Virus record (IMG/VR): IMGVR_UViG_3300021399_000116
Location: 1 to 40,795 of that record
From: a virus
Taxonomy: Duplodnaviria; Heunggongvirae; Uroviricota; Caudoviricetes
DNA: 40,795 nt
Direction: 5' to 3' (one strand)
Below are positions 16,656 to 30,876 of this stretch, in pieces. Position 1 is the stretch's first letter; the number at the start of each line of letters is the position of its first letter. Below the pieces are notes generated by a model. That model did no database searches. It was not told where the DNA came from and saw only the letters and a list, made by a program, of their open reading frames with translations. The position numbers and the translations under genes were made by a program.

Positions 16656-17888
16656 ATGAGCAAAATAAATAATACTTTTAAGAATATAAATGCTTCTATT
16701 TTTTCAGCTCTTAAAGAGTCTGCTGCTAATGAAGCTAGTGTGTGGAAAAATACTCTCAAAGAAACTGGAGAATGGGATGATGAAGACGATGAAATGGCTC
16801 TTTGGTTAGATGAATTAAGAAGTCAAGCTCAAGAATTAGCTAATCAAATAAATGGAGAAGTTAAATCTGTTACAGGGTTTGATGCTTATCAGGGACCAAG
16901 AGCTGTAGTACATTCACCTAAACACGGTGATGTAATAATGTGGTTTGACCAAGAAGATGATACTGGAAGAAGTTTTAATGTTAAAGTAGCACATGTAGGA
17001 TGGATTACTGGAGGAATAAATAATTTAGCTGATTTGTTAAATCAAGATACTATTCCAGAAAATGAAATTTTAAGTGAAGGTTCTATGGAGGATGAACTTG
17101 GAAAAGAAGCTGATGAATGGTTAGAAGACCAATATCGTAAATTAGAGAAAAAATATGGTCCTGATAAAGCACATGAAATGATTTATGGAAAATCAGACTC
17201 ATTAAAAGATAAAAATTCTTTCAAAGAAGGAGTACTTGTAGTAAATGATGATAAAGATATAGATAATACTGTTATTTTACTAAAAGATGTAAAAGCTCCT
17301 AATGGCTTAAGTGTAGTTTATTACAAAGATGTTTATTTTGTAGTAGATGAAAAAGATTTAAAAGAACTTGAAAAAAATAATATGTCAGTTTTACATCAAA
17401 GAGTTAGAGCTAGAAGTCTAGAAAGTCTTTTTAATGAGCTAAATGAATCTTTTATAAATAAAAGAAAGAAGCTTAAAGAATGGAAAGATGGAGGTAGCGC
17501 AAATCAATATGCTATTACATTCTATGTAAATTCTAATTTATCTGAAGAAGAACTAGAAGCTAGAACTCAAGAAGTAGTTTCAGCATTAGAAGATGATGAA
17601 ATGATAGAAAGACCTATAGAAGAAATAAAAGTAAAGAAAATCTCTGAAATACATAGAAGATTACCTGAAAGTTCTTTAAAAGAAGAAAGAGTAAATCAGA
17701 CAGTTAGAAAAGGTGATATATTTAGAAATAAAAACGGTGTTGCTTTAACTGTAACTGATGTAGATGATAAAAATCAAGTTACATATCATTTTTCTAGTAA
17801 TGGAGCAGTAGGAAAAGAGTATGATTGTATACCTTTAGAAAGTTTCTTACACATGGTAAATCAAAATGGTTACAGAAAGGAGATATAA
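16656..17888 (+). CDS. multi-domain putative internal head protein
   Basis: N-terminal ...SALKESAANE as in the capsid protein; internal ILSEG, LNESF, LKEW, SLKEE motifs separate small acidic domains. Confidence 0.65.
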   Translation: MSKINNTFKNINASIFSALKESAANEASVWKNTLKETGEWDDEDDEMALWLDELRSQAQELANQINGEVKSVTGFDAYQGPRAVVHSPKHGDVIMWFDQEDDTGRSFNVKVAHVGWITGGINNLADLLNQDTIPENEILSEGSMEDELGKEADEWLEDQYRKLEKKYGPDKAHEMIYGKSDSLKDKNSFKEGVLVVNDDKDIDNTVILLKDVKAPNGLSVVYYKDVYFVVDEKDLKELEKNNMSVLHQRVRARSLESLFNELNESFINKRKKLKEWKDGGSANQYAITFYVNSNLSEEELEARTQEVVSALEDDEMIERPIEEIKVKKISEIHRRLPESSLKEERVNQTVRKGDIFRNKNGVALTVTDVDDKNQVTYHFSSNGAVGKEYDCIPLESFLHMVNQNGYRKEI

Positions 17889-17890
17889 AC

Positions 17891-18130
17891 ATGAAAGTTT
17901 TAAATGAAAATGTATCTAAAAATATCATGAATAAATTAAATGAAGGATATAATGATGAGATAGGTGGAGACCCAGAAGATTATATCTCTGATTTGGAAGA
18001 ACTTAGAACTTATATAGATACTTTCGATATGAGCAAATTTGGAACTCATTTAGCATCTCAAATGGTTATGGATTTAGTTGAAACTATAAATAAGCAAATA
18101 GAATATACTAAAACAAAGTATGACTTGTAG
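17891..18130 (+). CDS. putative internal head protein, class A leader
   Basis: Start moved to ATG 17891 (SD AAGGAG): MKVLNENVSKNIMNKLNEG. Confidence 0.7.
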   Translation: MKVLNENVSKNIMNKLNEGYNDEIGGDPEDYISDLEELRTYIDTFDMSKFGTHLASQMVMDLVETINKQIEYTKTKYDL

Positions 18131-18139
18131 GAGGTAAAA

Positions 18140-18460
18140 ATGAAAATTTTAAGTGAAAATATTTCAAATAATATAATGAAAAAACTAAATGAAAGCTGGT
18201 CTAATGAATTAGGCATAGATTTAACTTCAGATGAAGAATCAACTTTAGATGATATGATGAATAAAGACTATGATTTAGAAATTGATGACTTAGATGATGA
18301 AGAAAAAGCAAAATATATAGATGTAGCAAACTCTATTAGAAAATTAGGACCAGAAGAAGCATATATAGACGTAGAAAAAGAAGTCAAAGAAAAAGCTAAA
18401 GAAAATCATTTAGATGCAGATTTATTGGCTTATATCTATTTGAGCCAATATAAACACTAG
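18140..18460 (+). CDS. putative internal head protein, class A leader
   Basis: MKILSENISNNIMKKLNES followed by an acidic domain. Confidence 0.7.
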   Translation: MKILSENISNNIMKKLNESWSNELGIDLTSDEESTLDDMMNKDYDLEIDDLDDEEKAKYIDVANSIRKLGPEEAYIDVEKEVKEKAKENHLDADLLAYIYLSQYKH

Positions 18461-18474
18461 AGGAGGTGAAAATA

Positions 18475-28490: not shown

Positions 28491-28501
28491 AGGAGGAAGA
28501 T

Positions 28502-28804
28502 ATGAGAAAAACTATTAAACTGATTGAAAAGCAAGTATATAATCCTTATCAAGATAAATATTATAATGTAGAAACTTCAAGTGAACCTTATGTAGTAGTT
28601 GTTTTTAATCGTAAAACTGACGAAAAAGTAGGGTATTTAGGAGTGTCTCATGGAGAGTGTTATATTGAAACTAAAAGATGTGATGCAAAACATTATAAAA
28701 CCAAAGAAGAAGCCGAAGAAGAATTATATGACAATTATAATTTAGAGTATGAAATAGATACACAAAAGTATTATTTAGAAGTAAGAAAGATTATTTTAAA
28801 ATAG
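28502..28804 (+). CDS. putative internal head protein, class C leader
   Basis: MRKTIKLIEKQ. Confidence 0.7.
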   Translation: MRKTIKLIEKQVYNPYQDKYYNVETSSEPYVVVVFNRKTDEKVGYLGVSHGECYIETKRCDAKHYKTKEEAEEELYDNYNLEYEIDTQKYYLEVRKIILK

Positions 28805-28820
28805 CCTAGGAGGTAAGACA

Positions 28821-29786
28821 ATGAGAAGAACTATAAAATTAATAGAAAAAGCATCTATAGACTGGAATAATTATCTTACTCCAGAAGAAGTTGAAAAGCT
28901 AAAAGCTACAGATGACATAAATAAAGCTAATATAGCTGGAGATATTATAGATAGTAAAAAATTTAAAAGTAAACTAGAAAATTTTAAAAAATCAGGTTGG
29001 ACTTATGAAGAACTAATAGATAATTTATTAAGCTTTTGTTGGAACGGTAATTTAACAGAATCTAATCATCAAGATATAATAGATAAATATATTAAAGAAA
29101 ATACAAATTCTATTATAGGTTTAAGAGAATTAGCTGAAAAAGTTAGGGTTTATATAAGTACTATAGGTAAAAAATATAATAATGCTAAATATGATTATGA
29201 AAGAAATAATTATAAAGAACAGCAAGAATTTTATAGAGAAATTTTAGCAGAAATAAATAAAAGATTGAATTTAACTGAATCTGATTCATATAATATGATT
29301 ACTTTATATCATAATACCTCTAATGAAAATGCTATGAAAATAAATACTGAAGGGATAATTCCAGGATTAAGAAAAGATATATATGGTAAAGGCAGTGAGG
29401 CTGAAGGTTCTGGAGTTTGGTGTAGCTTAGTTAGAGGATATGGCTACGGTGGAGCCACTGTTACTTTTAAAATAGATGCTGAAGACAAAGATTTAGAAAA
29501 AGAAAATGATATAGAATATATGGTATTTAGAGAAATAAAGCCAGAAGAAATAACAGATATAGATTTAATGATTGCTACTATACCTTGTAATCCTCTTAGA
29601 AGAGATAGCATTAATTCTACAGTAGAATCTGATATTCCAGAAGCTATAGAGAAATGGGGTAAAGATGATTTATTAAAAGTATTTACAGAAAATCAAGATA
29701 AATTTGTAAAACCTTATGACTTAGAGCAATTTAAACATTTAATAGATACAGGAGAAAAATACTGTAAAGGAAATATTTATAATTAA
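28821..29786 (+). CDS. putative internal head polyprotein, class C leader, C-terminal ADP-ribosyltransferase-like domain
   Basis: MRRTIKLIEKA; two internal NLTES; last domain ITLYHNTSNENAMKINTEGI...GVWCS...YGGATVTFKID...EYMVFREIKPEEI. Confidence 0.6.
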   Translation: MRRTIKLIEKASIDWNNYLTPEEVEKLKATDDINKANIAGDIIDSKKFKSKLENFKKSGWTYEELIDNLLSFCWNGNLTESNHQDIIDKYIKENTNSIIGLRELAEKVRVYISTIGKKYNNAKYDYERNNYKEQQEFYREILAEINKRLNLTESDSYNMITLYHNTSNENAMKINTEGIIPGLRKDIYGKGSEAEGSGVWCSLVRGYGYGGATVTFKIDAEDKDLEKENDIEYMVFREIKPEEITDIDLMIATIPCNPLRRDSINSTVESDIPEAIEKWGKDDLLKVFTENQDKFVKPYDLEQFKHLIDTGEKYCKGNIYN

Positions 29787-29802
29787 GAAAGGAGAACTAA
29801 TA

Positions 29803-30876
29803 ATGAAAGTAGGACTAAGCGAAAATTTTACAGCTAAAATAACAAATGCTTTGAAAGAAAGTGAAAAAGCAAAAAAGGCTATGAAAGAAGATAGTTATGA
29901 CTCTGGAATATTTCAAGAAATAGAAGAAGCTTTATATGAAGCTGGATTACAACCATCTAGATTTGTAGATGATGGAGTATTAACTAAAAACATAGGTTGG
30001 ACAGTAACTTCTTCAGAAACTGGTGAAAGTCAACAATTAACGTGTGATGGAAGTTGGTTAGATGAAAGTTTAAAAGAAGCTGTTGATGGAGAATTTAAAG
30101 TTGGAGATATAGTAAAAGTTCCATATAAATATGGCTCATATACTCCAGGAGAATTTACAGAAGCTCCAATAATAGATATTGAAGATGGAAAATATGTAAC
30201 AGTTGAAGTACCTAGTAAACAAGTAGTTATGATGGACCAACTTAAAAAATGGAACAGTGGATTAAATGAAGCTTTTATGATTAGATATTTCTGGGGAGAT
30301 GAAAATGGCTATGTAGGAAGAAACGGAAATGAATATACTAGAACAGCAGACCCTAGTAAAGCTTTAAAATTTAGTTCAGAGGAAGAAGCTGAACATAACA
30401 AAGAAGATATAGACCAATATTTTGGTGGTAGAGCTAAATTAGTAGTAATGAAAGAAGCTGAAGATTTTATAATAGACCCATTTGATAAAGTAGGTGGAGA
30501 TGTTAAATACATTCTAGACGGAATAGATAAACTTAGAAAAGGGCTTCATTCTTATGAGTCAGAGAAAATTCTAGATACTATTTTAGAAAGAGTTCCAAAG
30601 ATTTTAAAAGAGTTAGGATATTCTTGGGATAATACTAAGAATGAATCTATAAAAGAATCAATAGATTTAGCTGAAGAAGGATTCGATACATTTAACGGCT
30701 TTAAAAATGAACTAAGAAAAAATAGTGGCCTATATGGATTAGTAAGCAATGAAGCTCACAATATGAGTACAGAATTATTAAAAGAAGTTGCTTTAGATGG
30801 AATATATTACGCTGAAGGACATGAAGAAGACATAGTTAGAGATATTAAAGAAAGATACTATGATGATATTTCTTAA
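29803..30876 (+). CDS. putative internal head polyprotein (class A-like leader)
   Basis: MKVGLSENFTAKITNALKES; internal AMKED, LDESLKEA, GLNEA, VMKEA, SIKES between 50-65 aa domains. Confidence 0.65.
   Translation: MKVGLSENFTAKITNALKESEKAKKAMKEDSYDSGIFQEIEEALYEAGLQPSRFVDDGVLTKNIGWTVTSSETGESQQLTCDGSWLDESLKEAVDGEFKVGDIVKVPYKYGSYTPGEFTEAPIIDIEDGKYVTVEVPSKQVVMMDQLKKWNSGLNEAFMIRYFWGDENGYVGRNGNEYTRTADPSKALKFSSEEEAEHNKEDIDQYFGGRAKLVVMKEAEDFIIDPFDKVGGDVKYILDGIDKLRKGLHSYESEKILDTILERVPKILKELGYSWDNTKNESIKESIDLAEEGFDTFNGFKNELRKNSGLYGLVSNEAHNMSTELLKEVALDGIYYAEGHEEDIVRDIKERYYDDIS

Follow-up and report, generated by a model that had tools for sequence, protein, structure and literature searches.

In phage T4, the first 10 residues of the internal protein (IP) IPIII target proteins to the prohead core, with residues 8 and 10 of this capsid-targeting sequence (CTS) governing its cleavage, and passengers fused to IPIII are taken up into the head and from there reach cells; the protease gp21 has the site LIE-9 at its own N-terminus, and Alt, an ADP-ribosyltransferase (ART), is cut at ITE-6 and LTE-619 (PMC9026906, PMC5694885, PMC3012670). 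Here we analyze the T4-type head module of a tailed phage represented by a single 131,968-bp contig with 28% G+C (IMG/VR record IMGVR_UViG_3300021399_000116), of which the first 40.8 kb (40,795 nucleotides; hereafter the window) were studied. Five genes of this module code for proteins (gp16656, gp20768, gp22268, gp28821, and gp29803) that we consider probable cargo polyproteins, cut at their joints by the phage's own prohead protease.

The locus resembles the T4 system of IPI, IPII, IPIII, and Alt in combining an S77 protease, a gp23-type capsid protein, and short leaders ending in [LI]-x-E, and, like the T4 internal proteins, its cargo is a diverse, fast-changing set that includes an antirestriction protein. 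Short leaders of about 10-20 aa ending in hydrophobic-x-Glu on otherwise unrelated proteins, the pattern that marks a T4-type CTS, are present, and one leader class (class C, MRRTIKLIE-9) equals the N-terminal site of T4 gp21 in length and in its LIE ending. Pfam and PHROG searches gave no match of the cargo to T4 IPI, IPII, IPIII, or Alt, and, as judged at the level of sequence, the kinship with the T4 CTS/gp21 cargo is functional or architectural and not one of cargo descent. Unlike T4, whose cargo consists of single mature products with terminal propeptides, this phage has two to five modules per chain with sites between them; it has three leader classes, with more in its relatives, and its cargo is acidic, in contrast to the basic internal proteins of T4.

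Several motif sites after Glu in one substrate are also a property of T4 gp22, gp67, and gp68 and of the giant-phage propeptides (substrates of phiKZ gp175 and SPN3US gp245), the cuts being known there and only the sites here; likewise, the T4 and giant-phage proteases remove their own C-terminal tail with several motif copies, and the tail of the present protease carries four sites (PMC5694885, PMC10052503). However, the additional cuts in the T4 core and in giant phages clear scaffolds or propeptides and leave one mature product, whereas here the pieces between sites are conserved modules that also occur as genes of their own. The giant-phage proteases are further of the S80 type and prefer a small residue (A/S/G) at P3, in contrast to the S77 type and L, I, or M at P3 in this phage, and the Pfam matches here include neither pfam12699 nor any other inner-body family.

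A third comparison is with the polyvalent proteins of phages and conjugative elements, in which unrelated conflict domains, including ArdA and ARTs, are combined as mosaics in one polypeptide that is expected to be packaged and to travel with the DNA, and for which Iyer, Burroughs, Anand, de Souza, and Aravind (2017) drew an analogy to viral polyproteins (PMC5512222). Those proteins are usually very large, with embedded peptidases (MPTase and others) proposed (PMC5512222), whereas the present chains are of 237-410 aa, and Pfam and PHROG detected no peptidase family in the five of them. They also differ from polyvalent proteins in bearing a T4-type leader on each chain and, at the joints, the site of a trans-acting prohead protease. 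The domains per chain are ArdA with an N-terminal block in gp20768 and an ART/Tpt1-like fold (a weak match) with two helical blocks in gp28821. An earlier reading of the same DNA made from its letters alone (the sequence-only reading) had called a polyprotein strategy one not usually described for tailed phages. This claimed too much: cutting of the gp21 type at several sites is established for T4 gp22/gp67/gp68, Alt, and giant-phage propeptides, and packaged multi-domain polyvalent proteins have already been proposed (PMC5694885, PMC10052503, PMC5512222). The part that stands concerns several folded cargo modules in one chain that the prohead protease would separate in trans, an arrangement for which we found no description in the literature searched.

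Protease-type sites and module edges in five head-module proteins

Nearly all window genes lie on the + strand, as do the capsid gene and every window gene given a gp number below, and the T4-type head module, with its S77 protease, gp23-type capsid protein, and head-tail adaptor, spans 16.6-31 kb. The prohead protease gp18466 (18466..19158; 230 aa) is of the MEROPS S77/T4 gp21 type (PF03420, E 1.7e-18, aa 40-170), also matches the T4 gp21 structure 5JBL (E 1.1e-8), and has His, Ser, and Asp positions, in GEANHP, SSRG, and FDIV, that align by eye with those of T4 gp21. Its C-terminal tail (aa 168-224) holds LTE/S, MTE/A, LNE/S, and IKE/S, where the slash marks the predicted cut, with P1 at aa 170, 184, 201, and 223, immediately beyond the S77 match, whose end is at aa 170. 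The gp23-type major capsid protein (24064..25476; 470 aa; PF07068, E 2.8e-46, from aa 84) has an N-terminal propeptide with the strict sites LKE/A (aa 10-13), LKE/S (31-34), and LTE/S (67-70), all three kept in the relatives L002 and L003.

A reference motif, [LIM]-[NKT]-E/[SAG], was derived only from leader ends, capsid propeptide sites, and protease tail sites, which avoids circularity, and counts for leader proteins exclude the first 25 aa. It occurs 8 times in the five multi-block proteins against a shuffle mean of 1.06 (P<2e-4), never in seven single-block leader proteins (shuffle mean 0.37), and 7 times in the 40 other proteins (shuffle mean 5.1), so that its frequency is not that of the remaining proteins, an equality that would have spoken against the sequence-only reading. 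A wider strict motif, [LIM][NKTS]E[SAGD], gave 11 against 2.8 in shuffles for the 12 leader proteins and 12 against 9.4 for the 40 others. The 15 single-block leader proteins of the relative L002 again show no internal excess (2 vs 2.3); the excess therefore belongs to multi-block proteins and not to leader proteins generally.

When gp29803, gp28821, and gp16656 were searched against 5.8 billion proteins, 55, 87, and 45 metagenomic relatives were recovered, most of which cover the query in part. The internal endpoints of their BLAST high-scoring segment pairs (HSPs) number 316, of which 216 lie no more than 6 aa from a strict site, as against 37 expected, and none of 20,000 random site placements reached 216. 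This randomization of site positions replaced a first breakpoint test in which endpoints were chained into clusters and which proved too crude, with mixed P values. Each of the 11 internal strict sites in the five proteins coincides with a block edge that homology had placed independently.

The chain with most blocks, gp29803 (29803..30876), begins with a class A-like leader (aa 1-19, extended to 29), followed by blocks A (30-92), B (93-156), C (157-218), D (219-285), and E (286-357). Its sites are LKE/S (aa 17-20), MKE/D (27-30), LDESLKE/A (86-93), LNE/A (154-157), MKE/A (216-219), and IKE/S (283-286), with P1 codons at the junctions ending at nt 29859, 29889, 30078, 30270, 30456, and 30657, and of 105 homolog HSP endpoints, 86 are no more than 6 aa away from one of them. 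The blocks, expected from the letters to be of 50-65 aa, are actually of 62-72 aa, and the motif AMKED, taken as an inter-block site, is present at aa 27-30 but ends the extended leader. Among the relatives, block B is missing from P0002, B and C from P0004 and P0010, and C and D from P0005, while P0011 and P0012 have B ahead of A, and further relatives carry B alone inside proteins of 500-600 aa. Block B (window 30079-30270, …KVGDIVKVPYKYGSYTPGEF…) is the most widely shared of all blocks.

A class C leader (LIE/K, aa 1-9) opens gp28821 (28821..29786) and is followed by blocks I (10-80), II (81-153), and III (154-321), the last with an ART/Tpt1-like fold. The two NLTE/S junctions (nt 29052-29060 and 29271-29279) have 97 of 125 homolog HSP endpoints within 6 aa. 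The blocks are permuted in P0062, P0063, and P0065, with III preceding I in the latter two, and III stands alone behind a leader of 13-17 aa in P0067, P0068, and P0072. A large protein open at its 3' end (window 37743-40793) matches gp28821 aa 27-175, which holds its two helical blocks, over aa 73-224 (25% identity, E 1.5e-5); this could reflect shared helical modules or an effect of composition.

Upstream of the protease, gp16656 (16656..17888) consists of a leader (aa 1-21, LKE/S) and blocks at 37-141, 142-264, 265-343, and 344-410, with sites ILSE/G (aa 141), LNE/S (264), LKE/W (275), and SLKE/E (343) and junction P1 codons ending at nt 16718, 16763, 17078, 17447, and 17684. Homolog HSPs end at aa 141-142 in 23 of 46 cases and start at aa 34 in 20 of 40, block 37-141 ends exactly at ILSE/G in 23 relatives, and further breaks are at 264, 275, and 343. 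LKE/W and SLKE/E, which the sequence-only reading had counted with the rest, thus lie outside the strict motif but on homology breakpoints.

In gp20768 (20768..21931) a class B leader (1-19) and an N block (20-157) precede an ArdA domain (158-387) across the junction LEEGLKE/D (aa 151-158; LKE/D at nt 21230-21238). The ArdA match (PF07275, E 1.5e-9; PHROG anti-restriction) starts at aa 166-184. The relative L002 has the ArdA domain directly behind the leader, after MKE/DSL, L005 has two extra blocks ahead of it, and P0029 has the N block joined to block A of gp29803. The fifth protein, gp22268 (22268..22981), has a class B leader and blocks 20-137 and 138-237, separated by SLNE/S (aa 134-138; LNE/S at nt 22670-22678). 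P0189 (139 aa) corresponds to gp22268 aa 1-139 alone and P0190 (114 aa) to aa 134-237 behind its own leader, and many other relatives carry one half only. P0189 and P0190 are located in different phages, and their being neighboring genes of a direct fission was therefore rejected. In the syntenic gene of L005 (L005:2523-3224) an in-frame TAA replaces a Glu codon two residues past SLNE/S; block 1 keeps the leader and ends at the TAA, while block 2, in the same frame, is called only from an internal ATG and has no leader. Either the gene has naturally split at the joint, or its second module is decaying.

Phages whose capsid proteins are 97% identical differ greatly in the blocks that they carry. 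Paralogy between the blocks of the window was considered and rejected, as, leaders aside, only one weak match was found (block C to gp19161). The motifs quoted in the sequence-only reading are all in place in the five proteins and in the protease tail, and their supposed position at domain boundaries is borne out in that they mark the edges of independently shuffling modules in all five. Its expectation that single blocks would be found alone or reshuffled elsewhere agrees with blocks standing alone with their own leader (P0067, P0190) and with gp17891 recurring as an internal block (P0011).

Leaders, single-block proteins and the peptide at the joints

Twelve ORFs, all in the head module, carry an N-terminal leader of one of three classes, namely A (MKILNENVS...LNE/S), B (MKHLTEK...KLNE/G), and C (MRRTIKLIE/K), with divergent class A-like versions in gp16656 and gp29803. 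The 12 proteins resemble one another in the leader only. When the whole genome (132 kb) was scanned for the class A and C leader patterns, no copy turned up outside the head module, and the class B and the two divergent leaders were recognized by eye in the window only. The leaders are neutral to basic, with a net charge of 0 to +2 (all leader proteins, 16656-30876).

The seven remaining leader proteins have a single block or domain. The class A leader is common to gp17891 (17891..18130; 79 aa), in which it ends in LNE/G ahead of a 61-aa block, gp18140 (18140..18460; no internal strict site), gp19161 (19161..19544), whose body is weakly similar to block C of gp29803, and gp21945 (21945..22247), while class C leaders are found on gp22996 (22996..23370), gp28502 (28502..28804), and gp20069 (20069..20749; LLE/K; PHROG 36119), which has no strict internal site and served as a control for such sites. 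The single-block cargo gp17891 has its counterpart inside P0011 (460 aa), in an alignment that begins exactly with LNE/G over LKE/E (E 2e-17), and the block of this type is internal in 14 of 14 contexts, always after L-[KTN]-E. One cargo body (…KAYKFYDNEIDHNINYIGDMKAGNCKQN…) has a class A leader in L005:3234-3641 and a class C leader in the window at 22996-23370; the leader classes are therefore exchangeable.

Across all retrieved relatives, block I (KASIDWNNY) follows [LIV]-x-E in 26 of 27 distinct contexts, the TGEWD block of gp16656 in 25 of 25, and block A (DSY...) in 17 of 17, with [LIM]KE as its preceding residues; the gp17891-type block obeys the same rule in 14 of 14, with the block start four residues after the motif. 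The residue at P2 differs from joint to joint (K, N, T, V, I, L, Q, E), as does the text upstream, which is unrelated; for block I the rule holds at internal joints as well as after leaders of class C and class A (P0141). In the DNA, the sites have only 9-12 nt in common, with Leu encoded by several codons, Ser by both codon families, and Glu by both of its codons, which indicates that conservation acts on the peptide; given these mixed codons, we rejected for this genome a recombination joint preserved in the DNA at silent positions. The sites at aa 92 and 156 of gp29803 are identical in 11 of 12 nt, and P0002 lacks exactly the block between them (B), a loss that such a match could have helped.

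Predicted folds, related capsid genes and neighboring loci

The AlphaFold model of gp28821 (49-row alignment) has a mean pLDDT of 80.5, with values below 50 for the leader (aa 1-9). The first NLTE/S lies in coil between helices 62-74 and 83-94; the second follows helix 125-148, likewise in coil, and pLDDT drops below 50 at aa 153-156. Block III is modeled as an alpha/beta domain, whose best PDB matches in Foldseek are Tpt1/KptA and ADP-ribosylating toxins (weak; E 0.013-0.15, with about 100 aligned residues); the predicted fold resembles the NAD-binding lobe of Tpt1/KptA, and some relatives have an additional block that is a true PF01885 domain. The gp29803 model (29-row mosaic alignment; mean pLDDT 44) cannot settle linker disorder, and only blocks A and C are modestly modeled, as separate small units. 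The AlphaFold check proposed with the sequence-only reading, whether the motifs lie in linkers, thus comes out in favor for both gp28821 sites, whereas for gp29803 the model is too poor. The ESM Atlas gave low-score leads to a Tudor/SH3-like beta-barrel over exactly aa 93-156 of gp29803, that is, block B (TM 0.6-0.69 by query), and nothing usable for gp16656 block 37-141; Pfam and PHROGs returned no family for most blocks.

By capsid protein, the nearest named phages, at about 37% identity, are Listeria LIS04 (filed under Thornevirus) and the Bacillus phages HSE3 and SP-15, and a megablast of the 15-kb region against named phages gave no DNA-level match. A scan of IMG/VR with the capsid protein alone found two loci; in the close relative L002 this protein is 97% identical. 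The capsid gene of L003 (L003:8680-11146) is interrupted by an inserted 227-aa ORF, leaving an N-terminal part of 87 aa and a C-terminal part of 380 aa; in the SP-15 record two capsid-protein pieces flank an endonuclease, and in the window a 461-aa endonuclease-like ORF (25637-27022; DUF7487/HTH) directly follows the intact capsid-protein gene. The more distant relative L004 codes for a Cpn60/GroEL-family protein within its head-gene region (L004:17224-18588), and near that gene are polyproteins of 619 aa and 929 aa with other leader families, MSETRKLFESYQNNLNE/G and MKTNINIFNALNE/S. Among related chains, P0097, P0107, P0114, and P0122 are leaderless, with an ART-like start and a conserved Cys/His-rich end block (…IKVDCNC…CKHL…, SWIM-like), which may be an alternative capsid anchor; the genome studied here has, outside the window at C1:80089-80442, a weak tblastn match to this block (31% over 132 aa, E 9e-6).

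Competing explanations and the proposed fate of the chains in the head

The architecture of the five chains is well supported by the positions of the motifs, their excess over chance, their coincidence with module edges, the shuffling in relatives, and the families of the protease and the capsid protein. That the motifs are merely a chance product of a Leu/Ile/Lys/Glu-rich proteome at 28% GC is, in our view, excluded: the relaxed [LIM]-x-E is indeed common everywhere (1.8 per 100 aa in other proteins), but the reference motif far exceeds its shuffle mean in the multi-block proteins, the other 40 proteins have no such excess, and no random placement of the sites matched the independent homology breakpoints as well. 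A less simple alternative is that the chains stay intact as multi-domain proteins and that L-x-E is the scar of in-frame cassette fusion or of microhomology used in shuffling. The leader-like remnants often kept at internal joints (e.g., ...HLKLIE/K before block I, resembling the class C leader) and the near-identity of the gp29803 sites 92 and 156, which flank exactly the block missing from P0002, would suit such an origin. Yet only P3 and P1 are conserved, while P2, P1', and the upstream text vary, the Leu, Ser, and Glu codons differ among sites, and the same rule governs the capsid propeptide and the protease tail, which are no fusion scars. Moreover, an exposed site identical to a leader site should be cut once the chain enters a prohead with an active gp21-type protease, and a scar origin is compatible with present-day cleavage; we therefore regard permanently intact chains as unlikely.

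We are equally doubtful that the chains are the prohead core or scaffold, comparable to T4 gp22, gp67, and gp68, being diced into fragments that leave before DNA packaging. T4 gp21 does cut core proteins to short fragments that exit the capsid (PMC5694885), the predicted fragments here are all acidic, and Pfam and PHROG scans recognized no separate scaffold gene in the window; gp16656, moreover, sits directly upstream of the protease, with its leader and C-terminal block conserved and its middle variable. However, an ArdA antirestriction domain and an ART/Tpt1-like fold make sense only inside a host cell, the high variability of the blocks between phages with nearly identical capsid proteins is the pattern of arms-race cargo and not of a scaffold, and the blocks are folded domains and not coiled-coil filler, as in the gp28821 model. 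The scaffold explanation fits gp16656 best, by position, conserved ends, and acidity, and the ArdA and ART-like domains poorly.

Several observations weigh against reading the five proteins as cargo polyproteins. Cleavage, packaging, and injection are predictions from sequence, for this phage and its relatives alike. Many relaxed L/I/M-x-E triplets lie inside blocks, and the motif by itself is no predictor of cutting; besides the poor quality of the gp29803 model, its sites 156 and 218 border directly on block C, at its first and last strand, and do not sit in a long disordered linker. A recognizable effector-type fold is present in only two or three blocks. The predicted mature blocks are acidic or neutral (net charges run from about +1 to -55 and are negative in nearly every case), unlike the basic internal proteins of T4, and their physical role inside a DNA-filled head may differ accordingly. 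Finally, some related polyproteins start directly with an ART-like block without a recognizable leader; either the leader is not the sole route in or those proteins are not packaged.

With the cargo-polyprotein reading as the one we favor, and the T4 gp21/CTS precedent as our guide to targeting, cleavage, retention in the capsid, and injection, each chain would consist of one capsid-targeting-type leader and two to five independently evolving modules of 60-230 aa, with short linkers carrying the putative S77 protease motif (L/I/M at P3, Glu at P1, a small or acidic residue at P1'). The leader would bring the entire chain into the prohead scaffolding core, and the activated protease would trim the capsid propeptide, its own tail, and the leaders, and in the same step cut the exposed inter-module joints, freeing each module within the capsid as a small acidic protein of its own (net charge -3 to -55). 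At least some modules (the ArdA DNA mimic, the ART/Tpt1-fold domain) would probably exit with the DNA and act early against host defenses; a virion-borne ArdA would meet type I restriction ahead of any phage gene expression. The sequence-only reading is thus partly supported: its structural half holds, more strongly than the letters alone showed, while its functional half is what we infer from T4.

Every leader ends in a predicted cleavage site, and an in-frame fusion or fission of neighboring cargo genes would therefore leave the mature products unchanged, which would explain why the same modules are found alone, fused, permuted, or deleted in related phages. By extension, we tentatively suggest, as a possibility that falls short of being probable, a natural plug-and-play loading of T4-type heads, whereby a module would need only to stand behind a leader, or behind another module at an L-x-E joint, to enter the head and be freed there by the prohead protease; fusing, splitting, or reordering the cargo genes would be nearly neutral to selection, combinatorial cocktails of injected anti-defense proteins could arise, and the joints would be at once protease sites and evolutionary seams.

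If the joints are cut, the deliverable repertoire of T4-type phages would be larger and more modular than gene counts suggest, and the annotation of such chains as 'hypothetical protein' would hide several mature products. Cargo-gene fusions would likewise be pre-adapted to resolution, which would account in a simple way for how extremely mosaic the relatives are, and the T4 expression-packaging-processing approach based on CTS fusions might be extended to several passengers per tag with defined sites between them. The putatively virion-borne ArdA and ART-fold domains would then be candidates for first-minute counter-defense in an uncultured low-GC phage lineage.

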